From Candidatus Magasanikiibacteriota bacterium (GTDB lineage Bacteria > Patescibacteriota > Patescibacteriia > Magasanikbacterales > UBA922): a stretch of 64,000 nt of DNA. The notes beneath the pieces are model-generated. The model worked only from the letters and a program-made list of their open reading frames with translations. It was not told the DNA's origin and searched no databases. Position numbers and translations under genes: made by a program. Every line of letters begins with the position of its first letter. The stretch's first letter is position 1. The stretch covers positions 30,069 to 94,068 of the forward strand of contig JBAYVA010000004.1 in NCBI GenBank assembly GCA_041674805.1, given 5' to 3'. Below are positions 25,655 to 51,178 of the stretch, piece after piece.

Positions 25655-27661
25655 ATGCAAAAGATTTTAGAACGTATTTTGAAAATTCTTATTGGAACAA
25701 CTTTTTTTATTCCTTTGCTTGTTTTGCCAAAAGTTTATATATTTCCGTTTATCGTACCAAAGATTATTTATTTTCGCTCTCTTGTCTTGCTCATGCTTGG
25801 TGTATATTTGATTTTGTTGTTTGCAAATTTTGCTAAGTATCGTCCTAGATTTTCTTGGTTGCATGTCAGTGTTTTGGCATTTTTTTCCTCTTTCTTGATT
25901 TCTACTTTTTTAGGTGTGGATTGGTATAAGAGTTTTTGGGATAGTCACGAGAGAATGCTTGGAGCTTTTACTATTTTTCATTATATAATTTATTATATTA
26001 TTGTGAGTAGTGTTTTGCATAGTTGGGATGATTGGAAAAATTTGTTGCGTACATTTTTGTTGGCTGGTTCTGTAGTCATGTTTATTGGTCTTTTACAAAG
26101 ATATGCTGATCCAGAAATGCTTTTGAATAGAGGTAGCGAAAGAGTTTCGGCTACACTTGGTAATGCTATATATTTTAGTGGCTATGGTTTGTTTTTGTTT
26201 TTTGTAGGTGCTCTTTTGGCTGTCAAAGACAAATTGAAATTGGTTAAGAATCAAATGTTTTCTTTTGAAGCTTCTTGGTTTTGGTTTGAAGTATTAGCTG
26301 CTTTGCTTGGTTTTTGGGGAATATTTTTGGGTGGTACTAGAGGAGCGTTGGTTGCTTGGTTGTTAGCTATTATTATTTTAAGTTTGGTATATTTTTTTAC
26401 ATTAAAAGAACAGAAAAAATTGAAGCAAATAGTTTCTTTATTTTTCTTAAGTATGTTGACTATTTTTGGAGTATTGTTTATAAATAGAAATACTGAATTT
26501 GTTCAAAATTTGCCAACAGTTGGACGTCTGTTTTCTACAGATATATCTAATACAAATACTAGAGTTATGGCTTGGGGAGTGGCTTTGGATGCTTGGCAAG
26601 AAAAACCAATTTTTGGTTGGGGTCCAAATAATTATTATTATGCTTTCAATAAGTATTATCGTCCAGAATTTTTGCAATATGGTTTTACTGAAACTTGGTT
26701 TGACAATGCACATAGTGTAATCATGAATACTTTGGCTGTGCAAGGTGTGGTTGGTATTGTATTGTATGTGAGTATGTTTTTACTTGCTAGTTGGTTGTTG
26801 ATAAAGAAATATAGAGAAGGTAATTTGGATGTTCATATTTTGGCTTTTTCTTTGGCTTTTTTGTGGGCTCATTTTATTAGCGTTGCTACTGTTTTTGATA
26901 ATCCTACTTCATATTTATATTTCTTTTTCTTCTTGGCTATGGTAAATTTTTTGACAGAAAATAAAAGAGAAGAAAATCTAACTAAAAATTATAAACAAAT
27001 TTCAATAGGTATTTCAGTTTTAGTTTCTGTTTTTATTCTTATTTTATTATATAGTACAAATATTAATCCAGCTCGTGCTAACAAAGCGACTTTGCGTGCT
27101 ATCCAGAATTTGACGTCAGGCAAAGCTTTTGAAGCTGATTATGAATTGGCTTTGAAAACGCCTAGTCCTCATATAGATGATATTAGAAATGATATTTCTA
27201 GATTTTTTACTGAAGTGATCACTCAAATTTTTAAAGATACAAAAATAAAAGATAAATGGGCTGTGGCTGAAAATTTTTATAATTTGGCTGTAAATAATTT
27301 GGAAGAAAATTTGAAGATTCATCCTAATGATATTCGTGTAAGTTTACAATTGTCTCAGTTGAAGTTGATAGGTGCTTCAGCTACTCAAGATGTAAAATTG
27401 TTGCAAGAGTCTGAAAAGATTTTGGAAGATGCTTTGTTATTATCTCCAAAGAGACAACAAATACAATATTTATTGTCAAATGTCAAACAACAATTGCAAA
27501 AACCAGAAGAAGCTGAACAATTGTTGAGAGATAGTATTTCAAATGATCCTTTGATTGCAAATGGCTGGCAACAGCTTGAAAGTTTGTACAAAGCTATGGG
27601 TGAAAATGAAAAAGCAAAGGCGTTGCATGAAGAAGCTGTGGAAAAGGGAATATCTTTTTAA
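25655..27661 (+). CDS. O-antigen ligase/polymerase (Wzy_C)-family polytopic membrane protein with C-terminal TPR region
   Basis: About 12 TM helices with a large loop containing GGTRGALVAWLLA (Wzy_C-like); a soluble C-terminal roughly 200 aa with TPR-like repeats. Confidence 0.5.
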   Translation: MQKILERILKILIGTTFFIPLLVLPKVYIFPFIVPKIIYFRSLVLLMLGVYLILLFANFAKYRPRFSWLHVSVLAFFSSFLISTFLGVDWYKSFWDSHERMLGAFTIFHYIIYYIIVSSVLHSWDDWKNLLRTFLLAGSVVMFIGLLQRYADPEMLLNRGSERVSATLGNAIYFSGYGLFLFFVGALLAVKDKLKLVKNQMFSFEASWFWFEVLAALLGFWGIFLGGTRGALVAWLLAIIILSLVYFFTLKEQKKLKQIVSLFFLSMLTIFGVLFINRNTEFVQNLPTVGRLFSTDISNTNTRVMAWGVALDAWQEKPIFGWGPNNYYYAFNKYYRPEFLQYGFTETWFDNAHSVIMNTLAVQGVVGIVLYVSMFLLASWLLIKKYREGNLDVHILAFSLAFLWAHFISVATVFDNPTSYLYFFFFLAMVNFLTENKREENLTKNYKQISIGISVLVSVFILILLYSTNINPARANKATLRAIQNLTSGKAFEADYELALKTPSPHIDDIRNDISRFFTEVITQIFKDTKIKDKWAVAENFYNLAVNNLEENLKIHPNDIRVSLQLSQLKLIGASATQDVKLLQESEKILEDALLLSPKRQQIQYLLSNVKQQLQKPEEAEQLLRDSISNDPLIANGWQQLESLYKAMGENEKAKALHEEAVEKGISF

Positions 27662-27675
27662 TTTAGAAATTTAGG

Positions 27676-27796
27676 AATTTTAAATTTTAAATTATCTGTT
27701 TGCCTATGTGGTGCGAGCGGAAATATTTTTTAATTTATAAATGAAATTATTTTTATTCTCTTAATTTAGCAGACAAACAAGTTAAAATTTAAAATT
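27676..27796. repeat. imperfect long-range inverted repeat between the wzy-like gene and gmd
   Basis: Left arm aattttaaattttaaattatctgtttgc. Right arm gcagacaaacaagttaaaatttaaaatt (15/15 outer match). Roughly 65-bp spacer with a GC-rich core gtggtgcgagcgg. Confidence 0.4.
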
Positions 27797-27819
27797 ACTA
27801 AATTTAAAATTATATTTAT

Positions 27820-28836
27820 ATGCGTAAAGCACTAATAACCGGTATCACCGGACAAGATGGATCTTATTTAGCAGAATTATTGCTAGAAAAAGGTTATGAA
27901 GTACATGGTATTATTCGTCGTTCTAGTAGTTTTAATACGGAAAGAATAGATCATATTTATCGTGATAAACATGAAAAAGGTGTTAAATTATTTTTGCATT
28001 ATGGTGATTTGACAGATAGTAGCAATGTTAGTCGTATTTTGGAAGAAGTAAAACCTGATGAAATATACAATTTGGGAGCACAGAGTCATGTGCGTGTAAG
28101 TTTTGATTTACCAGAGTACACAGCTGATGCTGATGGTTTGGGAACATTACGTTTACTTGATGCTATTCGTGACAAAGGTATGGATGTAAAATTTTATCAA
28201 GCAGGAAGTTCAGAAATGTTTGGCAAAGTTTTGGAAATTCCACAAAAGGAAACAACAGCATTTTATCCTCGTAGTCCATATGCTTGTGCCAAAGTTTATG
28301 CTCATCATATTGCTGTTAATTATCGTGAAAGTTACAATATGTTTGTTTGTAACGGAATACTATTTAATCATGAATCTCCTCGTCGTGGTGGCACTTTTGT
28401 TACCAAAAAAATTGTGGATGCTTTCAAAAATATCAAAGAAGGAAAACAAGAAAAATTGTATTTGGGTAATCTAGAAGCCAAGCGTGATTGGGGTTATGCT
28501 TGTGATTATGTAGAAGCTATGTGGATGATGCTTCAACAAAAAGAGGCTGATGATTATGTCATTGCTACTGGCGAAACTCATAGTGTGCGTGAATTTGTGG
28601 AGGAATCTGCTCCTTATTTTGGTTTTGCTATTGAGTGGAAGGGAAGTGGTATGAAAGAAAAAGGAATTGATAAAAATAGTGGTAAAGTTTTGATTGAAAT
28701 AGATGAACAATATTTTCGTCCAGCAGAAGTAGATTTGCTATTGGGAGATGCTAGTAAGGCTAAAGAAAAATTGAATTGGGTACCAAAAACTAAGTTCAAA
28801 GAGTTGGTGAGTATTATGTGTGAGGAAGAAAAATAA
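27820..28836 (+). CDS. gmd: GDP-mannose 4,6-dehydratase
   Basis: [42 protein letters not shown] is near-identical in pattern to E. coli Gmd. Confidence 0.9.
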
Positions 28837-28889
28837 ATTTGTTGGTTTTTAGAAATTATGTTATAATATTTTCATAAAAAAATAAATGT

Positions 28890-29002: not shown

Positions 29003-29959
29003 ATGAACTATTTATCAAAAATTTATGTAGCTGGACATAATGGAATGGTAGGTTCTGCTATTTTGCGTTTACTTGAAAAACAAGGTTATACAAATATTAT
29101 TATACGTACGAGAGAAGAACTTGATCTGACAAATCAGCAATCTGTGGCAGATTTTTTTGCAACAGAAAAACCAGAATATGTGATTCTGGCAGCTGCCAAA
29201 GTGGGGGGAATTATGGCCAACAATACTTACCCAGCAGATTTTCTCTATCAAAATTTACAAATTCAAAATAATGTAATTCACAATGCCTATTTGAGTGGCG
29301 TGAAGAAGTTGTTGTTTCTTGGATCTTCTTGTATTTATCCAAAGAATTGTCCGCAACCCATGAAAGAAGAATATTTATTGACTGGACTTTTGGAAGAGAC
29401 AAACGAACCTTATGCGATTGCCAAGATTGCGGGAATAAAAATGTGTCAAAGTTACAATAGACAATATGGCACAAATTTTATTGCGGTCATGCCGACCAAT
29501 CTTTATGGGGAGAATGATAATTTTGATTTGAATAATTCTCATGTTTTACCAGCTTTACTTCGCAAGTTTCACGAAGCAAAAATAAATAATTTGTCAGAAG
29601 TAGAAGTGTGGGGTACAGGTACACAAAGACGGGAATTTTTGTATGTGGATGATATGACGAAAGCTTGTCTTTTTGTCTTACAAAATTTTAGTCCAACTAA
29701 GGACCAAAATGAAAATGGCGATATATTTTTTAATATTGGGACTGGAATGGATCTTACTATTCTAGAATTAGCAGAAATGATCAAGAAAATAGTTGGTTTT
29801 GAAGGAAATATAGTTTTTGACACTACTAAACCTGATGGAACTTTGCAAAAACTCTTGGATGTAACAAAAATAAATAACTTAGGTTGGAAAGATGAAAGTA
29901 GTCTAGAAGAGGGTATAAAACAGGTTTATGATTGGTATTTGGACCGTATTGACACCTAG
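29003..29959 (+). CDS. fcl: GDP-L-fucose synthase (GDP-4-keto-6-deoxymannose 3,5-epimerase/4-reductase); a ColC-like alternative is possible
   Basis: IYVAGHNGMVGSAI, LAAAKVGGI.ANNTYPADF and NEPYAIAKIAGIK.C.SYNRQYG collinear with E. coli Fcl. Confidence 0.85.
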   Translation: MNYLSKIYVAGHNGMVGSAILRLLEKQGYTNIIIRTREELDLTNQQSVADFFATEKPEYVILAAAKVGGIMANNTYPADFLYQNLQIQNNVIHNAYLSGVKKLLFLGSSCIYPKNCPQPMKEEYLLTGLLEETNEPYAIAKIAGIKMCQSYNRQYGTNFIAVMPTNLYGENDNFDLNNSHVLPALLRKFHEAKINNLSEVEVWGTGTQRREFLYVDDMTKACLFVLQNFSPTKDQNENGDIFFNIGTGMDLTILELAEMIKKIVGFEGNIVFDTTKPDGTLQKLLDVTKINNLGWKDESSLEEGIKQVYDWYLDRIDT

Positions 29960-30062: not shown

Positions 30063-30308
30063 ATGTCTGAAATCAAGCCCAACGAAGTATATACAACTAC
30101 AGAAGCTCAAGATTTACTAAAAATTAGTAGTAGTACCATGAAACGCCTGCTTAAACAAGGTCTTATTCGTGCTAATAAGATTGGTAAACAATACAGAATT
30201 CTTGGTCATGAACTTTTGCGTTTGCTTTCGCCTGTTGTAGACCAAAGGGTCACTGATTTATATCAAAAGGTGAAGATAAAAACAATTGAGAAAATTGATA
30301 AATGGTAG
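30063..30308 (+). CDS. small helix-turn-helix DNA-binding protein (excisionase/MerR-like HTH_17)
   Basis: YTTTEAQDLLKISSSTMKRLLKQGLIRANKIGKQYRI pattern of excisionase-family HTH domains. Confidence 0.5.
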   Translation: MSEIKPNEVYTTTEAQDLLKISSSTMKRLLKQGLIRANKIGKQYRILGHELLRLLSPVVDQRVTDLYQKVKIKTIEKIDKW

Positions 30309-30391: not shown

Positions 30392-32212
30392 ATGAAAAAA
30401 ATAATTCAAAAATTTAATTTTTTATATAAAATTAATGATCTTTTCAATAAAAAAGAAAAAATACATTTTTTATTTGTTTTGATTTTGTCGATTATTTCGT
30501 CTTTATTTCAAGCTTTGGGAATTATTTCTATACTTCCTTTTATGAGTATAATAATGAATTCAGATTTAATATACTCAAATTTTTTTTATTTTTATGTTTA
30601 TAATTTATTTAATTTTACAAGTGAAGGTTCTTATATATTTTTTGTAGGTTTATTTGTTTTATCAATTATTATACTTGGTAATTTAATTTCAGCTTTAAAT
30701 ATTTGGGTTAAAACATCTTTCATTTGGGGTAAAGAGCATAAGTTGTCAGTTTCTTTGTTGAAAAAATATTTGTCTCTCCCTTACATTTATTTTTTGGATA
30801 GAAACACTGCAGATTTGGGGAAAAATATATTGGTTGAAGTTGGAAATCTTATGAATGGTTTTCTTTTTCCATTTTTAAGAATATTATCTGATATAATAAT
30901 GATTTTGGTTATTTTGGCAACTCTTCTTTTTGTTAATTTTAAAATTACTTTAATTGCCTCTGTTGTTTTGATAACAGCTTATGTCATAATATATATTATG
31001 ATTTCTTTTAAATTAAAGAGCAAGGGTGTAGAACGTTTAGAAGAAAATAAAAGACGTTTTGAAACAGCCAATGAGGCATTGGGTGGAATAAAGGATGTAA
31101 AGCTTCTGGGTAGAGAATTATATTTTTTACATAGATTTTCTAAACATTCTCATAAATATTCTCAACTTATTATGTGGAGTGATGTAGTTGGACAAACACC
31201 TCGATATATAATGGAGATCTTTGCCTTTGGTGGAGTTATTACGTTAATTTTGTTTCTGTTTTCTTCTGGTTTTTTGATAAATGAAATTATTCCTTTGGTT
31301 AGTTTTTTTGTTTTTGCTGGTTATCGCTTAATGCCAGCATTGCAAGATGCATTTAATTCTTTTACTGTTTTTCGGTTTAATAAGGTTGTTTTGGACAGTA
31401 TACATAAAGATATGTTGGAGGATGGTATATATAAAGAAAAAAAAATTCTTAATGAAGAAAATTTAAAATCTATGATTTTTGAAAATGAAGTAGCTTTAGA
31501 AAATATTAATTTTCATTATCCTAATACACACAAAAAAGTGTTGAATGGTATAAGTTTAAATATAAAAAAGAAAACCTCTATTGCTATTGTTGGGTCTACT
31601 GGTTCAGGAAAAACAACTTTAGTTGATATTATTTTAGGACTTTTGAGTCCTCAGGAGGGACAAATTAAAATTGATGGTGTAGAAATAAATTATTCTAATA
31701 TTAGAAATTGGCAGGCTAATTTGGGCTATGTTCCACAACAAATATATCTTTCTGATGATACTTTAACTAGAAATATTGCTTTTGGAGTGCCAGATCATTT
31801 GATTGATAATGAACAAGTTAAAATGGTGGCTAAGATGGCTAGTATTGATGATTTTATTGAGAATGATCTTAAGGATTCATATAATACTATTATCGGAGAG
31901 AGGGGGATTAGGTTGAGTGGTGGACAAAGACAAAGAATAGGTATCGCAAGAGCTTTATATAATGATCCTAAAGTTCTTGTATTTGATGAGGCTACTAGTT
32001 CTTTGGATAATGTGACAGAAGACGCCGTACTAGATTCTATAGAAAGAATTTCAAAGTTTAAAACTATGATAATAGTTGCACATAGATTAACAACCATTAA
32101 AAAATGTGATATTGTATATTTATTAGATAAAGGTAAGCTTGTGGCTAGCGGAACCTATGAAGATCTAATAAAGACAAATGATCAATTTAAAATTATGGCA
32201 AAGAAATTTTAA
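30392..32212 (+). CDS. ABC exporter, fused permease/ATP-binding protein (MsbA-like)
   Basis: Six N-terminal TM helices; Walker A GSTGSGKTT, signature LSGGQRQR, Walker B VLVFDEATS. Confidence 0.8.
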   Translation: MKKIIQKFNFLYKINDLFNKKEKIHFLFVLILSIISSLFQALGIISILPFMSIIMNSDLIYSNFFYFYVYNLFNFTSEGSYIFFVGLFVLSIIILGNLISALNIWVKTSFIWGKEHKLSVSLLKKYLSLPYIYFLDRNTADLGKNILVEVGNLMNGFLFPFLRILSDIIMILVILATLLFVNFKITLIASVVLITAYVIIYIMISFKLKSKGVERLEENKRRFETANEALGGIKDVKLLGRELYFLHRFSKHSHKYSQLIMWSDVVGQTPRYIMEIFAFGGVITLILFLFSSGFLINEIIPLVSFFVFAGYRLMPALQDAFNSFTVFRFNKVVLDSIHKDMLEDGIYKEKKILNEENLKSMIFENEVALENINFHYPNTHKKVLNGISLNIKKKTSIAIVGSTGSGKTTLVDIILGLLSPQEGQIKIDGVEINYSNIRNWQANLGYVPQQIYLSDDTLTRNIAFGVPDHLIDNEQVKMVAKMASIDDFIENDLKDSYNTIIGERGIRLSGGQRQRIGIARALYNDPKVLVFDEATSSLDNVTEDAVLDSIERISKFKTMIIVAHRLTTIKKCDIVYLLDKGKLVASGTYEDLIKTNDQFKIMAKKF

Positions 32213-32233
32213 AAAATAATTAAAATTAATTTT

Positions 32234-33010
32234 ATGAAAGTAGTTATATTATGTGGTGGTTTAGGAACCCGTTTAAAAGAAGAAACTGAATTTAGACCAA
32301 AGCCGATGGTCCCTATTGGTAATAAACCTATTTTGTGGCATATTATGAAGATATATGCTCACTATGGTTTTAGTGACTTTATTTTAGCTCTTGGTTATAA
32401 AGGTGATACAATCAAGGAGTATTTTAATAACTATGAGTTAATGAATAATGATGTGACTCTTGAGTTAGGTAGACCAGAAAATCGTATAGTTTACCAGAAT
32501 CATAAAGAGATTGGTTGGAAAGTTACTTTGGCTGATACAGGTCAGTATTCTTTAAAAGGAGCTAGACTAAAAAAACTGGAAAAATATATTGAAGATGATG
32601 AATTCATGGTGACTTATGGTGATGGTGTCGCAGATATTAATATTGAAGAGCTTTTAAAATTTCATCGTAGTCATGGAAAGATGGTAACTGTAACTGGTTC
32701 TATTCCTTCATCTCAATTTGGAAAATTAACTATACAAGAAAATGATACTGTGAATTTTAATGAAAAACCAAAAGCTGATTCATATATAAATGGTGGTTTT
32801 TTTGTTTTTAATAGATCAATTTTTGAATATCTTACGACTGAAGATAGTTGTGATTTAGAATATGGGGTTTTAGAAAAACTTTCCCAATCTGGTGAAATTA
32901 AAGTTTATAAGCATAATAATTTTTGGGCGAACATGGATACCTTTAGAGATATGGAATATTTGAATAAATTATGGAATGAAGGTAATGCAAAATGGAAAAT
33001 TTGGAGTTGA
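32234..33010 (+). CDS. rfbF: glucose-1-phosphate cytidylyltransferase
   Basis: MKVVILCGGLGTRLKEETEFRPKPMVPIGNKPILWHIMKIY collinear with Salmonella RfbF/DdhA. Confidence 0.85.
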   Translation: MKVVILCGGLGTRLKEETEFRPKPMVPIGNKPILWHIMKIYAHYGFSDFILALGYKGDTIKEYFNNYELMNNDVTLELGRPENRIVYQNHKEIGWKVTLADTGQYSLKGARLKKLEKYIEDDEFMVTYGDGVADINIEELLKFHRSHGKMVTVTGSIPSSQFGKLTIQENDTVNFNEKPKADSYINGGFFVFNRSIFEYLTTEDSCDLEYGVLEKLSQSGEIKVYKHNNFWANMDTFRDMEYLNKLWNEGNAKWKIWS

Positions 33011-33038
33011 AAAATGAGAAAATTAAAATGGCAAAAAT

Positions 33039-35292: not shown

Positions 35293-35822
35293 AGTTCAAA
35301 GAGACTAAATTAAAAGGTCTTTATATTATTGAGCCTGAACTTAAAATTGATGAAAGGGGCTATTTTATGAGGACTTTCTGTATAGAAGAATTAAAGAAAA
35401 ATGATCTACAATTTACAGTTACACAAGTAAATCAAACCTTAACAAAAAAAAAGGGGACTATTCGTGGAATGCATTTTCAAAAATCATCAAAAGCGGAAGA
35501 TAAAATTGTTCAATGTTTGCGAGGTGCTATATATGATGTTGCTATTGATTTGCGTGAAGATTCAATAACTTATGGTCAGTGGGTTGCTGAAGAATTAACA
35601 GAAAATAATAAAAAATTGTTTTTAATACCTAAAGGTTTTGCTCATGGTTTCCAAACATTAACTGATAATTGTGAACTTCAATATTTTATGTCGGAATACT
35701 ACTCACCGGAGTATGCATCTGGTGTACTTTGGAACGACCCACTTTTTGATATATCATGGCCAATAAAAAAAATATTTCTTTCAGAAAAAGATAAAAAGTG
35801 GAATTTATTAAAAAAAGTATGA
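35289..35822 (+). CDS. NDP-4-keto-6-deoxy-sugar 3,5-epimerase (RmlC-like cupin)
   Basis: RmlC-family pattern ...RGMHFQ... with His/Tyr catalytic context; ATGA overlap with the next gene. Confidence 0.7.
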   Translation: MKFKETKLKGLYIIEPELKIDERGYFMRTFCIEELKKNDLQFTVTQVNQTLTKKKGTIRGMHFQKSSKAEDKIVQCLRGAIYDVAIDLREDSITYGQWVAEELTENNKKLFLIPKGFAHGFQTLTDNCELQYFMSEYYSPEYASGVLWNDPLFDISWPIKKIFLSEKDKKWNLLKKV

Positions 35823-41532: not shown

Positions 41533-41535
41533 AAT

Positions 41536-43235: not shown

Positions 43236-43263
43236 AATAATATAGTTTATAATATAGTTAAAT

Positions 43264-43989: not shown

Positions 43990-43995
43990 GAATTT

Positions 43996-45120
43996 ATGAA
44001 ATTTGTTATTTTGAATTCAGATTATCCAGTTTTTATAGAAAGTGTAGCCAAACAAGACACCTCTTTTTTGTCAGTTACATATGATGAACAGACAAAAATA
44101 TATTTTGATAAATTTTTTGGTACGGCTAATTTTTATTCAAAAAATCTTTGTTTATTGGGACATGAAGCTCAAGATTTTGTAATTAATAATCAATATTTAC
44201 AAAAAAAATGGTTAGTAGATCATGATTTATCTTATAATAAGATATTAGAACTGTTTGATAAAAATAGAATTTTGAGGACTCTTAAGAGGAAGTTTTATTT
44301 TTCTAGTGATTGGTATTATAAGGCTATTCTTGCCCAAATAAAAGAATATCGTCCAGATGTGATATATATACAGTTGATGGCCCACATTTCCCCTGTTTTT
44401 TTGAAAAAAATAAAAAAATATTGTAAATTATTAGTTGGACAGATAGCTTGTCCTATGCCTAGTTTAAATTATTTTAAAGACTATGATCTTATTCTTTCAT
44501 CTTTACCAAATTATGTTGAAAAGTTTAAAAAAGCAGGTATTAAGAGTGAATATTTCAAATTAGGTTTTGAAAAAGAAGTACTCAATAATCTATCAAAAAA
44601 AGATAATTTTTTTGATGTGGTTCATATTGGTGGTTATGGGCCTGTACATAATGAAAGAAATGCTTTGTTAGAAAAAGTAAGTAAAATTGTGCCAATTGAC
44701 TTTTGGGGGTATGGCGTTAACAATTTGTCATCTGAAAGTCCAATTAGAAAAAAAATTCATGGTGAATCTTGGGGAGTAAATATGTTTGAAACGCTTTATA
44801 ATTCTAAAATAACTATGACTAAACATATAGACTCTGTGGCTGGGGAATATGCGAATAATATGACACTCTTTGAGGCAACTGGAGTTGGTACTTTGTTAAT
44901 TACTGACGAAAAAAAGAATTTATCAGAACTTTTTAAAATTGGTGAAGAAGTTGTGACCTATAAGAATGCTGAAGATCTTGCTGATAAAATAAAATATTAT
45001 TTAGATCATGAAGAAGAACGAAAAAAAATTGCTCTTGCAGGACAGAGGAGAACTTTGACTGAGCATACTTACACAAATCGAATGCAAGAATTGATTAAAA
45101 TTATTGAAAATTATTTATGA
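43996..45120 (+). CDS. glycosyltransferase (GT1/CgeB-like)
   Basis: C-terminal GT1-like region with the E..EAT.VGTLLIT pattern. Confidence 0.5.
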   Translation: MKFVILNSDYPVFIESVAKQDTSFLSVTYDEQTKIYFDKFFGTANFYSKNLCLLGHEAQDFVINNQYLQKKWLVDHDLSYNKILELFDKNRILRTLKRKFYFSSDWYYKAILAQIKEYRPDVIYIQLMAHISPVFLKKIKKYCKLLVGQIACPMPSLNYFKDYDLILSSLPNYVEKFKKAGIKSEYFKLGFEKEVLNNLSKKDNFFDVVHIGGYGPVHNERNALLEKVSKIVPIDFWGYGVNNLSSESPIRKKIHGESWGVNMFETLYNSKITMTKHIDSVAGEYANNMTLFEATGVGTLLITDEKKNLSELFKIGEEVVTYKNAEDLADKIKYYLDHEEERKKIALAGQRRTLTEHTYTNRMQELIKIIENYL

Positions 45121-45920
45121 AAAAATTATTAAAAAATCTATTGTCTCCAATTCATAACTTTATTTATTCTAAAAATATACGTACTTTTTTAAAATTGTAT
45201 TTACGTTTCTCAAATGCTAAACGTTTTAAAGAAACAAAAATTAATTTTTTGAATTATTTTTTTATAGTTCCTGATAGCCTCAGTTTTGTTTATCAGTTTA
45301 AAGAAATATTTGTTGATCAAATATATAAATTTAAAAATGTTTCAGATGAACCTATTATTTATGATTGCGGTGCAAATGTAGGAACGAGTATTTTGTATTT
45401 TAAAAAAAATTACCCTAATGCGATTATTAAGGCATTTGAACCGGATAAAAAAATATTTTCTTATTTAAAAAATAATTTAATAGATAACGGAATAAATAAT
45501 GTCTTACTTGAAAATAATGCTGTCTGGATAAACAATGATGGTATAAGTTTTAGTTCTGATGGTGCTGATGGTGGTTCTATGTTTGGTGCTGATAATGTTA
45601 CTTTAGTATCTTCTGTAAGATTACGAGATTTGTTATCTAAAGAAAAATTAGTGGATATGTTGAAAATGGATATTGAAGGATCTGAAGTTGAAGTAATAAT
45701 GGACTGTGTTGATGTCTTGGACAAAGTAAATAATCTATTTGTGGAGTATCATTCTTGGAGTAAACAACCACAAAAACTGGATGAATTATTACAGGTATTA
45801 TCAAAAGCTGGCTTTAGGTATTATTTACAGACTATCAAGATACAAAGTGAACCTTTTGTAAATAAAGGGAGTGGTATGTTGATGGATTTACAACTTAACA
45901 TATCTGCTTATCGAATATGA
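45117..45920 (+). CDS. FkbM-family methyltransferase
   Basis: IIYDCGANVGTSILYF FkbM motif; ATGA overlap with the upstream gene. Confidence 0.65.
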   Translation: MKKLLKNLLSPIHNFIYSKNIRTFLKLYLRFSNAKRFKETKINFLNYFFIVPDSLSFVYQFKEIFVDQIYKFKNVSDEPIIYDCGANVGTSILYFKKNYPNAIIKAFEPDKKIFSYLKNNLIDNGINNVLLENNAVWINNDGISFSSDGADGGSMFGADNVTLVSSVRLRDLLSKEKLVDMLKMDIEGSEVEVIMDCVDVLDKVNNLFVEYHSWSKQPQKLDELLQVLSKAGFRYYLQTIKIQSEPFVNKGSGMLMDLQLNISAYRI

Positions 45921-46699
45921 ACAAGCAATTAATAAAAAGAATTATAGCAAAATGTTATCCATTTATTTATCGGGATGGTATTTTGATTTTGAATTACCAT
46001 TCTGTTGGTTCAAATAATCCTTTTTCTTTGTCTTTAAAAAACTTTGATGAACAAATGAATTATATTACTAAAAATTATAATATAGTGAAACTTGGTGATT
46101 TTTCAAATTTGGCTGGTGGAATAAGTTTAGTGGTGACTTTTGATGATGGTTATGAAGATAATTATTTGGAGGTTTTCCCAATTTTAAAAAAATATAATAT
46201 TCCTGCGACGATATTTCTTACTAGTGAATTTATATTGGGTAAACTTGATATTACAAAAGATTGGCTAGATTATAAAGGTTTAAAACCTCTTAAAATAGAT
46301 CAGATAGAAGAGATGAATAATTCAGGACTTGTTTCTTTTGGTTCACATAGTAAGACACACAGAAAAATGAGTAATTTATCTAAAGAAAATATAACTACAG
46401 AAGTAGTTGATTCAAAAAAAGAACTTGAATTTATTTTGGGCACTTCAATATCAGATTTCGCTTTTCCTTTTGGTCAAAAAAAAGATATTGGAGTATTTCA
46501 AGATGAGTTATTTAAGAATAGTGGTTATAAAACTGTTTGTACTACCAATTGGGGAATAAATTTATTTAAAAGTATTGATTTTTATAGACTAAAAAGAATT
46601 AGAATTGATCATTTGGACAGCTTAAATGATTTTGTAAATAAAATAAAAGGCCACTGGGATTTTGTTAGATTTTTTCAAAGTATAAAAAATTTTTTATGA
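45917..46699 (+). CDS. polysaccharide deacetylase (NodB/CE4)
   Basis: VVTFDDGYEDNYLEVFPILKKYNIPATIFL NodB motifs 1-2; HSKTH. Confidence 0.7.
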   Translation: MNKQLIKRIIAKCYPFIYRDGILILNYHSVGSNNPFSLSLKNFDEQMNYITKNYNIVKLGDFSNLAGGISLVVTFDDGYEDNYLEVFPILKKYNIPATIFLTSEFILGKLDITKDWLDYKGLKPLKIDQIEEMNNSGLVSFGSHSKTHRKMSNLSKENITTEVVDSKKELEFILGTSISDFAFPFGQKKDIGVFQDELFKNSGYKTVCTTNWGINLFKSIDFYRLKRIRIDHLDSLNDFVNKIKGHWDFVRFFQSIKNFL

Positions 46700-47871
46700 A
46701 AAAAGTTTTATTTATAAATACAGTATTTGATGGTGGTGGTGCTGCAAAAATTGTTCGTACTTTGTTTGATTACACAGATAAACAGCCGGATGTGGAAGCT
46801 TATTTTGCTTATGGTCGTGGTAAAAATGTTTATAAAAACAGAGTTTATAAATTTGGTATTTTTTTTGAGGTACTTTTCCATATTTTTATAGTAAGAATTT
46901 TGGGTATAGATGGTTGTGGTACTTATTTTTCTACTAAACGTCTTATAAATTATATTAAAAAAAATAAATTTGATTTAGTTCATTTGCATAATCTACATGG
47001 TTATTATTTAAATTATAAATTATTATTAAATTTTTTAAATAAATTAAATATACCAATAATTTGGACTTTGCATGATGAATGGGCTTTGACTTGGCTTCCT
47101 GCGCATAGTATGGGATGTCAGCATTGTATTTCAGCTGAAGGTAAATGTATAAATAGATATTTATATCCAAAGACGTATAACAAAATTTTCGCAAATTGGT
47201 CTTTAAAAAGAAAAATAAATTTGATTAGTTCTATTTCTAATTTAACTTTTGTTTCTCCTGCCAAATGGCTTGCTAAAAAAGTTAATTTGGTTTATCCAAA
47301 ACTCACTGTAAAAATTATTGTAAATAGTGTCAGTTTTTCAATTATAAACATTGATAAAAAATTGTTAAGAGAAAAATATAATTTAGGTCAAAATAAAAAA
47401 ATAGTTTTATTTTCTTCTGGAAATTTGAATGATCCAAACAAGGGTTTGAAGTATATTATAAAAATAGCTAGCAATCTGATAAAAGAAAAAGATATAGTTT
47501 TTGTTTTAGTAGGACAAGGTAAAAAGAAAAAATTATCTAATATTGTCTACTTGGGATATCTTAATGAAAAACAAATGGAAGAGGTTTATGCGCTTTCTGA
47601 TATGTATTGTTTTTTTTCAGAGGCTGAAACGATGCCATTATCTCTTTTGGAAGCAAAATCTGCTGGATTATATATTTTTTCTATGGACATATCTGCAAGT
47701 AAAGAAGTTCTAGAGGATTATGAAAGATGCTTTTTTGTTAATAATAATTCAATTTTTTTGTTGAAAGATAAAATTTTGAATTTAGACATAAATTTTCAAA
47801 AGAGGAAAAATGTTAGATACTATAATACTATTGATTTTTGTCAAGAATATTTTAAAATATATTTATCATAA
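46696..47871 (+). CDS. GT4/GT1 glycosyltransferase
   Basis: C-terminal E-x7-E-like region (FSEAETMPLSLLEAKSAGL). Confidence 0.6.
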   Translation: MKKVLFINTVFDGGGAAKIVRTLFDYTDKQPDVEAYFAYGRGKNVYKNRVYKFGIFFEVLFHIFIVRILGIDGCGTYFSTKRLINYIKKNKFDLVHLHNLHGYYLNYKLLLNFLNKLNIPIIWTLHDEWALTWLPAHSMGCQHCISAEGKCINRYLYPKTYNKIFANWSLKRKINLISSISNLTFVSPAKWLAKKVNLVYPKLTVKIIVNSVSFSIINIDKKLLREKYNLGQNKKIVLFSSGNLNDPNKGLKYIIKIASNLIKEKDIVFVLVGQGKKKKLSNIVYLGYLNEKQMEEVYALSDMYCFFSEAETMPLSLLEAKSAGLYIFSMDISASKEVLEDYERCFFVNNNSIFLLKDKILNLDINFQKRKNVRYYNTIDFCQEYFKIYLS

Positions 47872-47880
47872 TATTTTAAA

Positions 47881-48621
47881 ATGAAAATCTCCCTCATCAC
47901 AATTTCCTACAATAGTGCCAAAACGATTGAAAAAACTATTCAATCTGTTTTGTCGCAGACTTATACAGATATTGAATATATTATTATTGATGGAGCTTCG
48001 ACAGATGGAACTTTGAAAATATTTAATAAATATAAAGATAAAATTAGTAAAATAATTTCTGAAAAAGATAAAGGTATTTATGATGCCATGAACAAAGGTA
48101 TCTCTTTGGCTACTGGAGATGTTGTTGGAATTATTAATTCTGATGATTTTTATATTGATGAATTTTCTATAGCCAAAGTTATGGATTGTTTTGAAAATAA
48201 TAAAGTGGATGCTTGTTATGCTAATTTGGAATATTTGAATAGAGAAAATATTGATAAAAAAGTAAGAAGTTGGAGAGCAGGTGAGTATGATCAAAAGAAA
48301 TTATCAAGTGGTTGGGCTCCTCCACATCCTACTTTTTTTGTTAAAAAAGAAATTTATGAAAAGTATGGTAAATTTAACTTGGATTTCAAAATAGCTGCAG
48401 ACTATGAGCTAATGTTGCGTTTTTTGATCAAAGGTATTAATATTGTTTATATTAATGAAAACTTGGTTTGTATGAGGGAAGGTGGTCATAGTGCTAAGAG
48501 TGTTGCTCAGAGAATTAAAGGTTGGCAGGAGATTAGAAAATCTTGGCAAGTGAATAATAGACAAGTTCCTAAATGTTTGATTTTTAGAAGAATTTTGTCA
48601 AAATTATCACAGTATATATAA
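47881..48621 (+). CDS. family 2 glycosyltransferase
   Basis: ISLITISYNSAKTI...YIIIDGAST...INSDD. Confidence 0.75.
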   Translation: MKISLITISYNSAKTIEKTIQSVLSQTYTDIEYIIIDGASTDGTLKIFNKYKDKISKIISEKDKGIYDAMNKGISLATGDVVGIINSDDFYIDEFSIAKVMDCFENNKVDACYANLEYLNRENIDKKVRSWRAGEYDQKKLSSGWAPPHPTFFVKKEIYEKYGKFNLDFKIAADYELMLRFLIKGINIVYINENLVCMREGGHSAKSVAQRIKGWQEIRKSWQVNNRQVPKCLIFRRILSKLSQYI

Positions 48622-48725: not shown

Positions 48726-50090
48726 ATGAAACTACTCTACATCGGCGCCGGTTTTGTCGGCACATGCTCAGCTGCCGTTTCCGCTTCTAGTGGACACGAA
48801 GTTTTGGTTTATGATATTGATGAAAAGAAAATAAATATGTTATCATCTGGCGACCGTGATCAAATTGAGGCTTGTCTTTTTGAAGAAGGCTTGAGTGATT
48901 TGCTTACACGCAATAAAGAAAGAATAGAATTTACTATTGATTATAATAAAGTCAGTGAATTTTTGGAAAATTGTGATGCTATTTTCATGTGTTTGCCAAC
49001 TCCAGAAATTGGTGAAACAGGGGAGAGTGATCTCAAATATTATAATTTGGCTGCAGAAAAATTGGCTGAAAATTTGCTTAAAAGAAATAATAGTGAGCAA
49101 AATAAATATGTAGTTATTATCAACAAAAGTACTGTACCAATCGACATGGTAGATAAGACTGCTGAAATTTTGGAAAGTAAGGGCGTCAAAAATTTTGGGG
49201 TAGTTTCTAATCCAGAATTTTTGGTGGAAGGCAAAGCTATTCAAGGTTCAATCAAACCAGACAGAATTGTTGTTGGTGCTTGGAACGAAAAAGATTTTGC
49301 GATTATGAAAAAAGTTTACGAACGTTTTTGCAATTCTCCACAAACTAAATATATTGAAGTCAATCCTAAGGAAGCTGCAGCTGCAAAATTATTGGCAAAT
49401 TATATGCTTTTCAACAAGTTGGCTGTTTGTTTCGATGTCGTCGGTCGTACTTGTGAAAGTTTTGAAGATTTGGGATTTGAAAATGTTCGCAATGCTTTGG
49501 TTACAGATCCACGTATTGGAAGTTGGGGATTGTATGACAGCCTTTATGCTGGAGGAAGTTGTTTTATCAAAGATGCGCGTTCATTATCTCATCAACTCAA
49601 ACAAAAAAATCAAAATACAGTTTTGGTAGACGAAGTTTATTTGTCCAACAAAAGACAGCTCAAAAATTTCTTGGAAAGAATAGAATCTGTAAGTGGATTT
49701 GAAAACAAAAAAATCAGTATTTTAGGAACTGCTTTCAAACGCGATACCAATGATATTCGTAATTCAGCTAGTATCGAAATAATGAATTATTTGCAAGACA
49801 AAAATTTTGCTGAAATAAATATTTACGATCCGGCTGCCATGGACAATTTCAAAAAAATGTTTCCTGAATCAGTAAATATCAAATATCACAGCCATGAGTT
49901 TGAAGCAATTAGAAATTCTGATATAATAATCATAGCGACAGACTGGCCACAATTTCGTGGTTTGGCAGATATAATTATGTCAGAGATGTCTAACAAAGTA
50001 ATTATTGCTGACGGTCGTCGTATGCTCGCACATCGTTATGAAGATTTGAAGAATTCTGGGTTTAAGGTTGTGGCGGTGGGAAGTAAATAA
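48726..50090 (+). CDS. ugd: UDP-glucose 6-dehydrogenase / nucleotide-sugar dehydrogenase
   Basis: N-terminal GAGFVGTCSAAV Rossmann motif, catalytic Cys region GGSCFIKD, and a UDPG_MGDP_dh C-domain. Confidence 0.8.
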   Translation: MKLLYIGAGFVGTCSAAVSASSGHEVLVYDIDEKKINMLSSGDRDQIEACLFEEGLSDLLTRNKERIEFTIDYNKVSEFLENCDAIFMCLPTPEIGETGESDLKYYNLAAEKLAENLLKRNNSEQNKYVVIINKSTVPIDMVDKTAEILESKGVKNFGVVSNPEFLVEGKAIQGSIKPDRIVVGAWNEKDFAIMKKVYERFCNSPQTKYIEVNPKEAAAAKLLANYMLFNKLAVCFDVVGRTCESFEDLGFENVRNALVTDPRIGSWGLYDSLYAGGSCFIKDARSLSHQLKQKNQNTVLVDEVYLSNKRQLKNFLERIESVSGFENKKISILGTAFKRDTNDIRNSASIEIMNYLQDKNFAEINIYDPAAMDNFKKMFPESVNIKYHSHEFEAIRNSDIIIIATDWPQFRGLADIIMSEMSNKVIIADGRRMLAHRYEDLKNSGFKVVAVGSK

Positions 50091-50092
50091 AA

Positions 50093-50133
50093 AGTTTACA
50101 AACTTTATGAACTTTATAACTTTACAAACTATA
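50093..50133. repeat. tandem ACTTTAT(A/G)AAC / TTTACAAAC motifs immediately upstream of galE
   Basis: agtttacaaactttatgaactttataactttacaaactat runs straight into the ATG. Confidence 0.55.
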
Positions 50134-51140
50134 TGAAATATTTAATCACCGGCGGTGCTGGCTACATTGGTAGTCATGTCGTCAAACAATTGATTGACAA
50201 AAAAAACGATATTGTAATTGTAGATAATTTGTCTACTGGTTTACAAAAAACTATCAATACTTTGAAAAAATACGCTGACACCAAAAAAGTAAAATTAAGT
50301 TTTTATAAACTTGATTTGGCTGATAGCAAAAAATTGGAAACTGTTTTTGCCAAAGAAAAAGTTGCAGGTGTAATACATTTTGCTGCGAGTATTGTCGTGC
50401 CAGAATCAGTGATTGACCCTTTGAAATATTATGCTAATAATACGAGTAATACAATTAATTTGATCAAAGCTTGTTTGAAATATAAAGTAAACAAATTTAT
50501 TTTTAGTTCTACTGCTGCTGTCTATGGCGAGCTTGATGCAAAATATATTCCAGCCAAAGAAGATGGACCTGTTTCTCCTATCAATCCTTATGGACAAAGC
50601 AAACTTTTCAATGAAAAGATTATTCAAGATGTAGCTTTTGCTAATTCAAAATTTAAATATGTTATCTTGCGTTATTTCAATGTAGCTGGCGCCTGTCTAG
50701 ATGGCAGTATCGGACAGTCAAGTGAGAAAGCTACTTTACTAGTAAAAGTTTGTGCTGAAGTGGCACTTGGTAAACGCAAAAAATTAACATTATTTGGTAC
50801 TGATTACAAAACACCAGATGGTACTGCTATTCGTGATTATATTCACGTGGATGATTTGGCTTCTGCTCATATCAAAGCTTTGTCTTATTTGAACAAAAAT
50901 AAAAGTGATATTTTCAATTGTGGTTATGGCAAAGGTTTTTCTGTGCAAGAGGTCATAGATATGATGAAAAAAGTCAGTGGAGTTGATTTCAAAGTAGAAA
51001 AAGCAGGAAGACGTCCGGGTGATCCTGCTGTTCTTATTTCTGATAATAGTAAGATAAAAAATAAGATGGACTGGCAACCTAAGTATGATGATTTAGAAAT
51101 TATTTGTCGCACAGCGCTTGAGTGGGAGAAGAAAATTTAG
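50133..51140 (+). CDS. galE: UDP-glucose 4-epimerase
   Basis: ITGGAGYIGSHV, the YGQSKLFNE (YxxxK) motif and GalE length. Confidence 0.85.
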   Translation: MKYLITGGAGYIGSHVVKQLIDKKNDIVIVDNLSTGLQKTINTLKKYADTKKVKLSFYKLDLADSKKLETVFAKEKVAGVIHFAASIVVPESVIDPLKYYANNTSNTINLIKACLKYKVNKFIFSSTAAVYGELDAKYIPAKEDGPVSPINPYGQSKLFNEKIIQDVAFANSKFKYVILRYFNVAGACLDGSIGQSSEKATLLVKVCAEVALGKRKKLTLFGTDYKTPDGTAIRDYIHVDDLASAHIKALSYLNKNKSDIFNCGYGKGFSVQEVIDMMKKVSGVDFKVEKAGRRPGDPAVLISDNSKIKNKMDWQPKYDDLEIICRTALEWEKKI

Positions 51141-51148
51141 TTATCAAA

Positions 51149-51178
51149 AGAGGTGTGTAAAAACACCTCTTTTTTTAT
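51149..51178 (+). terminator. rho-independent terminator after galE (end of glycan locus)
   Basis: Hairpin gaggtgt-gtaaaa-acacctc followed by TTTTTTT. Confidence 0.7.

Follow-up and report, generated by a model that had tools for sequence, protein, structure and literature searches.

What is made by a 25-kb run of sugar genes on one strand of a Candidatus Magasanikbacteria contig, and to what is the product attached? Members of the Candidate Phyla Radiation (CPR, or Patescibacteria) are ultrasmall episymbionts whose cell surface mediates host attachment and phage exposure, and the locus lies in a 64,000-nucleotide stretch of contig JBAYVA010000004.1, which we refer to as the window. This operon-like cluster very probably builds, exports, and attaches a surface glycan rich in methylated deoxysugars. 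As a whole, it is best explained as a surface-glycan island of a Magasanikbacteria cell whose glycan is transferred en bloc to a secreted, S-layer-like protein, an explanation to which we assign a probability of about 0.6. The locus represents an ordinary kind of system, a surface-glycan or protein-glycosylation cluster similar to those for S-layer glycosylation or O-antigens.

The list of open reading frames (ORFs) contains 25 contiguous plus-strand ORFs spanning 25655–51140, of which 24 match curated Pfam and NCBIfam families well above threshold; the exception is a 241-aa ORF at 43264–43989. The first-pass annotation had drawn a contiguous single-strand glycan locus at 25655–51178. Its continuity and nearly all gene identities are reproduced by Pfam, NCBIfam, and PDB searches, and its start holds, but the last gene stops at 51140 and an 81-aa HTH_17 gene at 30063–30308 was overlooked. 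The three methyltransferase types it counted are indeed three families, but four genes: two of the TylC3/TcaB9 type, one of the CmcI type, and one of the FkbM type. By homology, the locus encodes two complete nucleotide-sugar branches together with UDP-sugar enzymes. The genes from 30392 to 48621 have a GC content of 26–27%, compared to 31.6% for the four genes upstream, 34% for ugd–galE, and 30.6% for the rest of the window, and they are tightly packed, with intergenic gaps of −25 to +54 bp. The locus takes up ~3.4% of its 744-kb contig and is flanked by housekeeping genes (class II aminoacyl-tRNA synthetase, SMC, rpsP, pyruvate kinase, and pyruvate phosphate dikinase). Promoter and terminator scans of the AT-rich window yielded counts equal to those in shuffled sequence, and tRNA and Rfam scans gave no match inside the locus. 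The same proteins are found at NCBI in a metagenome-assembled genome (MAG) of Candidatus Magasanikbacteria, a taxon of the Patescibacteria/Parcubacteria group, as MFA7245484.1 (a Wzy_C-domain enzyme with tetratricopeptide repeats, Wzy_C/TPR), MFA7245491.1 (a C-methyltransferase, C-MT), and MFA7245494.1 (a second methyltransferase, MT2). The C-MT protein is also encoded in the ENA assembly ERZ27247358, on a 743,922-bp contig; the locus proteins are already deposited, under generic automatic names.

Export and attachment of the glycan

Only two genes of the locus encode polytopic membrane proteins, and these would export and attach the glycan:

25655–27661, plus strand: Wzy_C membrane enzyme with C-terminal TPR, 668 aa (Pfam Wzy_C 73 bits, residues 214–372)
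30392–32212, plus strand: fused ATP-binding cassette (ABC) half-transporter with transmembrane and nucleotide-binding domains, PglK/MsbA-like (ABC_membrane and ABC_tran)

An AlphaFold2 model of Wzy_C/TPR, built on 36 orthologues (pLDDT 84, pTM 0.83), has WaaL (7tpg_B) as its best Foldseek match in the PDB, with an E-value of 1e-5 and a TM-score of 0.62 normalised to WaaL. TPR proteins rank next and match the C-terminal 200 residues of the model. The model contains 13 transmembrane (TM) helices and, by the positive-inside rule, the N-terminus lies inside, while the loop 277–354 and the ~200-residue TPR domain are predicted to lie outside the cell. R278, R303, and H353, all within this loop, are invariant in the 36-sequence alignment. 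The key residues of E. coli WaaL are R215/R288/H338 and those of N. meningitidis PglL R224/R298/H349 (PMC3643930), likewise Arg, Arg, and His, of which the three loop residues are possible counterparts. C-terminal TPRs have been reported for the O-oligosaccharyltransferases (O-OTases) WsfB and PglL (PMC2943079). The enzyme shares with PglL, TfpO/PilO, TfpM, and WaaL (7TPG) the Wzy_C domain, the GT-C/WaaL fold, and a large outer loop with invariant Arg and His, and with PglL also the C-terminal TPR; the mechanism of this family is en bloc transfer from an undecaprenyl-pyrophosphate-linked donor. It differs from them in that a phmmer search of the PDB sequences returns TPR proteins only and no solved WaaL, and in a thirteenth TM helix, which puts the ~200-residue TPR outside. 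As modelled, Wzy_C/TPR is a candidate O-OTase or ligase. Its homologues at E ≤ 1e-10 number 723. Of the top 120, almost every one is full length, with 45–68% identity, and those with a named source are mostly Magasanikbacteria, the rest being other Patescibacteria or unclassified bacteria.

The best NCBIfam model for the exporter is PglK (NF050066, 378 bits against a cut-off of 1000), followed by HepA and MsbA. The exporter is therefore a candidate flippase for a lipid-linked glycan, for which a PglK-like action is plausible. In the mechanism we propose, a priming transferase encoded elsewhere would start the glycan, which would be assembled on polyprenyl phosphate as carrier along the inner membrane face, and the PglK-like exporter would flip it in lipid-linked form. 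The 13-TM, WaaL-fold Wzy_C/TPR enzyme, with its TPR facing outward, would then attach it en bloc to Ser/Thr (or Tyr) residues of a secreted surface protein, for which an S-layer-like protein is the most plausible candidate.

CPR bacteria lack lipopolysaccharide (LPS) and lipid A (PMC10221324), and their cells have an S-layer but no outer membrane (bioRxiv 10.1101/2020.05.14.094862). Since lipid A is missing, lipid A-core cannot be the acceptor, and the PGAP name of MFA7245484.1, "O-antigen ligase family protein", is not to be taken literally. A candidate acceptor emerges from the contexts of four Wzy_C/TPR homologues, sampled on five contigs of relatives (L013–L015, L017, and L018). All five encode, 5′ of Wzy_C/TPR, a secreted protein of ~1,220–1,285 aa with 22–25% Ser+Thr, cut at the contig end in L018. 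These proteins (L013:5976–9830, L014:3300–6968, L015:5985–9836, and L017:1894–5595) carry signal peptides and are homologous to each other (28–37% identity). Their gene lies directly 5′ of Wzy_C/TPR in L013 and L015, while a second Wzy_C/TPR paralogue and a TPR protein lie between in L014. No Pfam family is on record for them, and a direct scan of the L013 protein also yielded none. They are candidate S-layer or major surface glycoproteins. The lack of lipid A in CPR, the outward TPR, and the Ser/Thr-rich protein beside Wzy_C/TPR in relatives together favour en bloc O-glycosylation of an S-layer-like protein; by analogy, a role of Wzy_C/TPR as an O-OTase acting on a protein acceptor is favoured.

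Several observations weigh against this explanation. The Wzy_C domain is common to polymerases and ligases, and neither fold nor sequence separates the two roles. At 378 versus 1000 bits, the exporter stays below the equivalog level to C. jejuni PglK, and Pfam finds no Wzx (Polysacc_synt) among the proteins of the 64-kb window. Pfam scans of the window likewise reveal no priming phosphoglycosyltransferase (Bac_transf, MraY-like, or Glycos_transf_4); in another locus, L011, Bac_transf adjoins the Wzy_C gene. The window contains neither a pilin nor a homologue of the Ser/Thr-rich protein, and the position 5′ of Wzy_C/TPR is taken by rpsP and a terminator-like hairpin (25541–25571) that follows it. 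Finally, all biochemistry is deduced, and the glycan is predicted from genes alone.

In a rival explanation, the glycan would be a wall-linked or lipid-anchored polysaccharide (capsule or secondary wall polymer) and Wzy_C/TPR a polymerase or a ligase to a non-protein acceptor. In its favour, WaaL ligases and Wzy polymerases have the Wzy_C domain in common, a ligase gives the best structural match, the PGAP name points the same way, no acceptor protein gene adjoins in the window, and L013 has an LCP (LytR_cpsA_psr) gene ~7 kb upstream. We nevertheless consider such a polymer unlikely: CPR have no lipid A or LPS (PMC10221324), and ABC export, PglK-like here and by Wzm/Wzt in L013, moves finished chains without a Wzy polymerase. 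Moreover, O-OTases that recognise proteins, WsfB and PglL among them, typically have an outward TPR (PMC2943079), and the Ser/Thr-rich secreted protein stands 5′ in five contigs of relatives.

Within the window itself, no pilin, S-layer candidate, or demonstrable target adjoins the locus. The first-pass annotation had suggested decoration of a surface layer, a pilus, or the neighbouring giant surface protein; for the latter we find no supporting evidence, and the best target candidate comes from relatives, outside the window. The proteins at 22172–24481 and 24511–25083 were rejected as acceptors, having neither homology to the Ser/Thr-rich protein of the relatives nor signal peptides, and those at 51227–51844 and 51855–55694 (1,279 aa) were rejected for lack of such homology. 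Directly 3′ of galE, 51227–51844 encodes a 205-aa membrane-anchored protein with no family match, and 51855–55694 a secreted protein with Peptidase_C39_2, fn3, and lamin-tail domains.

A type IV pilin would be the target if the system resembled TfpO/PilO or PglL. In L007 (GCA_028704945.1), pilB, pilC, and a pilin gene (N_methyl) lie directly 5′ of a Wzy_C/TPR gene, followed by Wzm/Wzt and the CDP-sugar cassette described below. O-OTase genes beside pilin genes are the rule for PglL homologues (PMC3643930), and type IV pili are central to CPR episymbiosis (PMC12206443). The L007 enzyme, however, shares only 23% identity with that of the window across 445 residues and thus represents a paralogous lineage. 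No pilin or pilus-assembly gene occurs in the 64-kb window, and the true orthologues (49–67% identity) accompany the ~1,250-aa Ser/Thr-rich protein, not pilins. Pilins in place of an S-layer-like protein are hence a decidedly improbable target.

Among the closest known systems are the clusters for S-layer glycosylation (slg) in Geobacillus stearothermophilus NRS 2004/3a and in Paenibacillus alvei CCM 2051T (PMC2943079). These serve a monoderm-type envelope and combine in one cluster nucleotide-sugar genes, several glycosyltransferases, a methyltransferase leading to a methylated 6-deoxyhexose, an ABC exporter, and a Wzy_C-domain O-OTase. In WsfB the TPR forms part of this enzyme, while in WsaA/WsaB a neighbouring gene encodes it. 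Further, slg adjoins the S-layer gene, as the Wzy_C/TPR gene stands beside the Ser/Thr-rich secreted protein in the Magasanikbacteria relatives. In contrast, the exporter here is a fused PglK/MsbA-type half-transporter instead of Wzm/Wzt, and dTDP-rhamnose gives way to predicted sugars activated by CDP and GDP (a C-methylated 6-deoxyhexose and fucose or colitose). The window also lacks a WsaP/WbaP-type priming enzyme and an S-layer gene, and it stems from a CPR bacterium.

A conserved anchor and an exchangeable island

Three genes between Wzy_C/TPR and the exporter complete what we term the anchor:

27820–28836, plus strand: gmd (TIGR01472 578 bits, cut-off 415)
29003–29959, plus strand: fcl, GDP-L-fucose synthase-like epimerase/reductase (NF047922 497.8 bits, cut-off 500, marginal)
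30063–30308, plus strand: HTH_17 DNA-binding protein, 81 aa (Pfam HTH_17 45 bits), at the junction of conserved and variable genes

The order Wzy_C/TPR–gmd–fcl–HTH_17 recurs in L013–L015, L017, and L018. In L013–L015, identity to the window is 49–67% for Wzy_C/TPR, 74–89% for gmd at the same position, 57–77% for fcl, which thereby belongs to the anchor, and 67–85% for HTH_17; L017 shares the gene order, with a Wzy_C/TPR 67% identical. Immediately after the anchor, protein identity of L013–L015 to the window falls to nothing. The exporter is exchanged as well: PglK-like ABC in the window, Wzm/Wzt with Wzt_C in L013, Wzx in L014 and L015, and Wzm in L018, where, as in L017, a short-chain dehydrogenase/reductase (SDR) gene precedes, right after the anchor. 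A further locus, L016, carries Wzx. The variable genes include a NeuB/CMP-sugar pathway in L013 and LicD in L015. On the other side, 5′ of the anchor, L013–L015 share the order sigma-70, a ~400–440-aa protein (DUF5667 in L015), and the Ser/Thr-rich protein of ~1,220–1,285 aa.

HTH_17 marks the exact end of the anchor in L013, L015, and L017. Orthologues with 58–85% identity occupy the same junction in L011 and L013–L016, and an 80-aa HTH_17 gene is found at the same position in L017 and L018. In seven glycan loci, an HTH_17 gene of 80–82 aa stands immediately 5′ of the exporter gene or the sugar-gene block (window 30063–30308; L011:5673–5921; L013:14811–15053; L014:21039–21284; L015:14880–15125; L016:6862–7110; L017:14986–15228). 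The protein could regulate the island, or its gene could serve as a landmark for recombination when cassettes are exchanged. In one relative, toxin–antitoxin and abortive-infection genes (RelB/YafQ, Bro-N, AbiEi/AbiEii) are located between the Ser/Thr-rich gene and Wzy_C/TPR at L017:6009–9935 and L018:3467–7393; this neighbourhood also gathers defence and mobile genes.

Judged by gene order and identity, the locus resembles O-antigen or capsule loci in that a conserved anchor is joined to a low-GC island open to exchange. We envisage that it evolved as a conserved anchor followed by an exchangeable exporter and a low-GC sugar region, which would have received the CDP cassette as a mobile module. 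O-antigen clusters likewise hold low-GC, hypervariable content between conserved flanks and exchange sugar cassettes and export mode in a modular fashion. In contrast to these, CPR have no lipid A-core acceptor, no Wzx/Wzy pair is present here, the single Fcl-like gene sits in the anchor, and the Wzy_C protein has a thirteenth TM helix and an external TPR. This agrees with published accounts of abundant surface-modification genes in Patescibacteria and of O-antigen sugar genes borne by phages (PMC12911398).

In related genomes, the anchor is shared by five contigs and the C-MT cassette occurs in further loci. To call such a repertoire notable in a reduced genome was an overstatement: in all Magasanikbacteria relatives examined, this anchor is accompanied by a glycan locus that is both large and variable, and loci of this size are usual rather than exceptional in the lineage. 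Since different sugar genes occupy the same position in every relative examined, the locus bears the mark of diversifying selection on a surface structure.

The CDP-sugar cassette

The first sugar genes of the island form a cassette for a CDP-activated sugar:

32234–33010, plus strand: rfbF/ddhA, glucose-1-phosphate cytidylyltransferase (TIGR02623 331 bits, cut-off 300)
33039–34091, plus strand: rfbG/ddhB, encoding CDP-glucose 4,6-dehydratase (TIGR02622 489 bits, cut-off 278)
34081–35292, plus strand: C-MT, TylC3/TcaB9/MtmC-type NDP-hexose 3-C-methyltransferase (PF08421 Methyltransf_13 64 bits, PF13489, PF08484 Methyltransf_14 187 bits)
35289–35822, plus strand: RmlC-type 3,5-epimerase (TIGR01221 189 bits, cut-off 156), its start overlapping the C-MT stop by 4 nt
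35798–36691, plus strand: RmlD-type 4-ketoreductase (TIGR01214 269 bits, cut-off 224)
36672–37793, plus strand: MT2, second, divergent TylC3-superfamily methyltransferase (Zn ribbon CPIC...CNEC, class I fold, Methyltransf_14/C2185-like C-terminal domain)
37848–38603, plus strand: CmcI/rhamnosyl (RMNT) O-methyltransferase-family protein (PF04989 286 bits; CmcI 2bm8 E 1.6e-7)
38605–39468, plus strand: glycosyltransferase family 2 (GT2) protein (PF00535 104 bits)

C-MT comprises an N-terminal Zn-binding domain, a class I S-adenosylmethionine (SAM) fold, and a C-terminal Methyltransf_14 domain, and matches MtmC (4rv9, E 6e-82), 5t64 (E 3e-69), and TcaB9 (3ndi, E 5e-62) over the full length. H171 and Y211-H212-E213-H214 are invariant in 21 homologues and align with the "YHEH" of MtmC; the active-site residues of TcaB9 are His181, Glu224, and His225. 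That C-MT would methylate C3 of an NDP-4-keto-6-deoxyhexose is predicted from synteny, its gene following rfbF–rfbG and preceding rmlC in each of the locus types described below. When the two C-METHYLTRANSFERASES were compared, neither was reassigned to an unrelated family. For C-MT this follows from the match to 4rv9, and the MT2 family profile aligns with that of the C-MT family at an hhalign probability of 99.8% (E 1e-27, 369 columns) and with MtmC 4rv9 at E 3e-31. MT2 keeps E165/H166 and Y208/E209/H210 at the catalytic positions, invariant or nearly so. In Pfam, only PF08484 passes (42 bits) and PF08421 does not, so that MT2 constitutes a divergent subfamily. By these profile comparisons, MT2 is a distant yet genuine relative of the C-MT family. 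It travels with the CDP cassette in L016, and a flagellin-glycosylation island of Clostridioides contains a homologue (39% identity). Its companions there are a cytidylyltransferase with 54% identity to RfbF, an RmlC-like gene, and a radical SAM/SPASM gene, which confirms a role of the MT2 family in NDP-sugar pathways leading to protein glycans.

The CDP reading itself is borne out by RfbF and RfbG, both above their equivalog cut-offs; the RmlC- and RmlD-type enzymes also score above cut-off. Moreover, rfbF–rfbG stands directly 5′ of C-MT in five independent locus types. The genes rfbF–rfbG–C-MT–rmlC are contiguous in the window, L007/L008 (Patescibacteria MAG GCA_028704945.1), L009/L010, L011, and L016, with 45–84% protein identity to the window. 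The whole cassette, rfbF–rfbG–C-MT–rmlC–rmlD–(MT2)–CmcI–GT2, recurs elsewhere with 37–84% protein identity, and two of these further loci belong to annotated Patescibacteria MAGs. Each occurrence of the cassette is followed by a CmcI-like gene and a GT2. CmcI-like orthologues (49–67% identical) follow the cassette in L007, L010, L011, and L016, and in the first three a GT2 partner (37–52% identical) lies directly 3′ of the CmcI-like gene, which makes the GT2 at 38605–39468 a candidate transferase for the C-methyl sugar. Beyond these loci, a cytidylyltransferase gene adjoins the C-MT gene in a Bryobacterales (Acidobacteria) MAG, and the distance is two genes both in a MAG of Actinobacteria and on a 32-kb plasmid of Brachyspira hyodysenteriae; in S. 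meliloti, pSymB carries ddhA–ddhB–"NDP-hexose 3-C-methyltransferase" (PMC4053727). Owing to this adjacency across loci, the pairing of C-MT with CDP-sugars is well supported. The enzymatic part of the first-pass interpretation is largely right, and the interpretation as a whole is partly supported. On the Brachyspira plasmid (L020, NZ_CP046927.1), 5530–14494 reads rfbF, radical SAM, rmlC, C-MT (46% identical), DegT aminotransferase, acetyltransferase, SDR, a second methyltransferase, and radical SAM/SPASM. B. hyodysenteriae, a pig pathogen, is in culture and could thus serve for work on the CDP C-methyl-sugar pathway.

More than 6,000 proteins are close homologues of C-MT, many with at least 70% identity, and the few with a source name are Patescibacteria; the view that such sugars are normally seen in actinomycete antibiotics or mycobacterial glycolipids was overstated. 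A scan of genome contigs with a single C-MT, using overly specific patterns, retrieved five distant loci (34–43%; Bryobacterales, Actinobacteria, Bacteroidetes) and no CPR genome. A scan of viral contigs with the C-MT alignment gave one 30% match, and the cassette is thus not a common phage auxiliary gene.

What would the cassette make? RfbF and RfbG would yield CDP-4-keto-6-deoxy-D-glucose, which the TylC3/TcaB9-type C-MT would methylate at C3. The RmlC-like enzyme, which with C3 now quaternary is expected to act at C5 alone, would invert C5, and the RmlD-like enzyme would reduce C4. The CmcI-like O-methyltransferase and MT2 would add further methyls before the dedicated GT2 transfers the sugar. 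The predicted product is a CDP-6-deoxy-3-C-methyl-L-hexose with one or two extra methyls, like vinelose or 3-C-methylrhamnose; the order of steps, stereochemistry and configuration, and methylation sites are those we infer. CDP-vinelose of Azotobacter vinelandii, 6-deoxy-3-C-methyl-2-O-methyl-L-talose, is the closest known nucleotide sugar and exactly the kind of product expected from this cassette. To our knowledge, no gene has so far been linked to vinelose, and we know of no biochemical characterisation of a CDP C-methyl-sugar pathway so far. Variation among the loci agrees with a 4-keto intermediate after methylation. L009/L010 have a DegT aminotransferase and an acetyltransferase where the RmlD gene would be expected, and in L016 a DegT aminotransferase stands in this position. 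Such a swap is expected if the C-methylated, C5-epimerised intermediate keeps its 4-keto group and is then either reduced or aminated. Between the acetyltransferase and the CmcI-like gene, L009:13505–13774 and L010:9582–9851 encode an 89-aa RmlD fragment, 63% identical to the window RmlD. This fragment is a scar of the 4-ketoreductase swap, and the product there would be a 4-acetamido C-methyl sugar, kansosamine-like. 3-C-methylrhamnose is a rare component of some O-antigens (PMC7203242).

The solved relatives of C-MT (MtmC, TcaB9, 5t64) are sugar 3-C-methyltransferases, MtmC being named for D-mycarose, and could suggest that the deoxysugar genes serve an antibiotic-type glycosylated secondary metabolite, as in actinomycetes. 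All three enzymes serve antibiotic pathways. The window, however, has no polyketide synthase, non-ribosomal peptide synthetase, or aglycone gene. The cluster instead includes a Wzy_C enzyme, an exporter of the lipid-linked-glycan type, seven glycosyltransferases of surface-polysaccharide families, ugd, and galE, and in relatives the same cassette accompanies Wzm/Wzt, Wzx, and a Bac_transf priming enzyme. We therefore regard a secondary metabolite as extremely improbable. The TylC3/TcaB9/MtmC pathways to L-mycarose and D-tetronitrose share with the cassette the three-domain C-MT with a His/Glu-His motif followed by a 5-epimerase and a 4-ketoreductase. Theirs, in contrast, are dTDP-2,6-dideoxy sugars for antibiotics, while here the substrate would be CDP-4-keto-6-deoxyglucose, the destination a surface glycan, and MT2 comes in addition.

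The GDP branch, remaining genes, and significance

Downstream of the cassette, two genes would link the island to gmd and fcl of the anchor:

39481–40656, plus strand: ColD/E1-type, pyridoxamine phosphate-dependent NDP-4-keto-6-deoxyhexose 3-dehydratase, 391 aa (ColD 2gms E 1e-55; E1 3bcx E 2e-43)
40660–41532, plus strand: GT11, alpha-1,2-fucosyl/colitosyltransferase family (PF01531 152 bits, full length)

His188 of this DegT-family protein aligns with His188 of ColD, a column fixed by the H188N/H188K mutant chains 3b8x and 2r0t, and sits where DegT-family aminotransferases have the Schiff-base Lys. ColD is the best PDB match (192 bits versus 152 for E1), and with 225 bits the match to the RfbH model stays below its cut-off of 423. 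In length the protein is close to ColD (391 and 390 aa; E1, 437 aa), and Pfam scans find no E3-type (RfbI/AscD, ferredoxin-reductase-like) reductase gene in the window; the dehydratase is thus ColD-like, not E1-like, as annotated at first pass. The proposal that Gmd with ColD-like and Fcl-like enzymes implies GDP-fucose and/or GDP-colitose also stands, with gmd well above cut-off (578 vs 415), His188 in place, and Fcl marginal. Gmd and Fcl would supply GDP-L-fucose, and the ColD-type dehydratase would give GDP-colitose with Fcl, which could double as a ColC-type reductase. The adjacent GT11, with counterparts 39–48% identical in L007 and L010, would use GDP-fucose, GDP-colitose, or both. In E. 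coli O55, the colitosyltransferase WbgN uses GDP-colitose and tolerates GDP-fucose (PMC12723683). The O55/O111 O-antigen systems (gmd, ColD, ColC, WbgN) have in common with this branch Gmd, a ColD-type enzyme with the active-site His, an Fcl/ColC-type reductase, and GT11. Less favourable to our interpretation are that Fcl falls just below its equivalog cut-off with no separate ColC gene present, and that sequence does not tell whether the ColD-like substrate is a GDP- or a CDP-4-keto sugar. No manB/manC is found in the window.

The remaining genes of the locus are:

41536–42339, plus strand: GT2 (PF00535 103 bits)
42327–43235, plus strand: GT2 (PF00535 114 bits)
43264–43989, plus strand: stand-alone UDP-sugar-dehydrogenase-superfamily protein, 241 aa (Rossmann GxGxxG as GILGYGEIG, central domain with IGGHC)
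43996–45120, plus strand: Glyco_trans_1_2-domain glycosyltransferase-like protein (PF13524 106 bits)
45117–45920, plus strand: FkbM-family methyltransferase (PF05050 59 bits; TIGR01444 84 bits, cut-off 38)
45917–46699, plus strand: carbohydrate esterase family 4 (CE4) polysaccharide deacetylase (PF01522 79 bits)
46696–47871, plus strand: glycosyltransferase family 4 protein (PF00534/PF13439)
47881–48621, plus strand: GT2 (PF00535)
48726–50090, plus strand: NDP-sugar 6-dehydrogenase, ugd-like (TIGR03026 286 bits, cut-off 190; three UDPG_MGDP_dh domains)
50133–51140, plus strand: galE, UDP-glucose 4-epimerase (TIGR01179 467 bits, cut-off 262)

Ugd would supply UDP-GlcA and GalE UDP-Gal, while the seven glycosyltransferases, the FkbM methyltransferase, and the CE4 deacetylase would assemble and tailor the glycan. 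The 241-aa ORF, first labelled an NAD-binding protein, has no significant Pfam match on its own, but its family profile places it in the UDP-sugar dehydrogenase superfamily. The profile matches 4r16 (E 3e-13) as well as dehydrogenases for UDP-ManNAcA and UDP-glucose, with alignments that cover the end of the NAD domain together with the central domain. The family (1,176 representative clusters at E ≤ 1e-3, mostly 230–260 aa, with the Cys of IGGHC invariant) comprises N-terminal and central domains related to UDP-glucose dehydrogenase, without the UDP-binding C-terminal domain. A pseudogene fragment of ugd was considered and rejected, as BLAST against the window ugd is insignificant and the family consists mostly of stand-alone proteins of this size. 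A single-sequence AlphaFold model reaches a pLDDT of 33. A copy with 50% identity adjoins rfbF in L016 (L016:7055–7900), and the family thus stands beside CDP-sugar cassettes in two loci.

Elsewhere in the window, three tandem tRNA-Ser genes with the anticodons TGA, GCT, and ACT occupy 12651–13116 on the minus strand. The anticodon of tRNA-Ser(ACT), at 13027–13116, is unusual (Rfam tRNA score 56 bits); A34 anticodons are rare in bacteria outside tRNA-Arg(ACG). A conjugation or type IV secretion-like block at 1546–11578 encodes a 1,084-aa membrane protein, a PrgI-like protein (7154–7591), a TraG/VirB4-type ATPase (8378–10255), a weak TraE-like protein (10239–10877), and a ComFC-like protein (10835–11578). 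At 57605–60763, the pyruvate phosphate dikinase ORF has 1,052 aa; its Pfam domains stop at residue 806, which leaves ~245 C-terminal residues without a domain.

Three features of the locus are of most interest: the lineage-wide anchor beside a Ser/Thr-rich secreted protein, the exchange of export mode at one position, and the CDP C-methyl-sugar cassette. They provide as leads a candidate O-OTase with a candidate Ser/Thr-rich target, a compact and widespread seven-gene cassette for a CDP-activated, C- and O-methylated 6-deoxyhexose (with the >6,000 close C-MT homologues mentioned above), and a family of short UDP-sugar-dehydrogenase-like proteins. A more far-reaching interpretation, which we advance tentatively, is that O-glycosylation is lineage-wide in Magasanikbacteria. 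Wzy_C/TPR would act on the ~1,250-aa Ser/Thr-rich S-layer-like protein, with a glycan from a hypervariable island that swaps cassettes and export mode at the HTH_17 junction and that here carries a vinelose-type epitope, which may be a doubly or triply methylated CDP-derived 3-C-methyl-6-deoxy-L-hexose. If true, this would be the first gene assignment for vinelose-type nucleotide sugars and would help to explain how the surface that episymbiotic CPR cells present to hosts and phages is varied. The locus represents a well-defined entry point for CPR glycobiology and for the enzymology of branched CDP-sugars.

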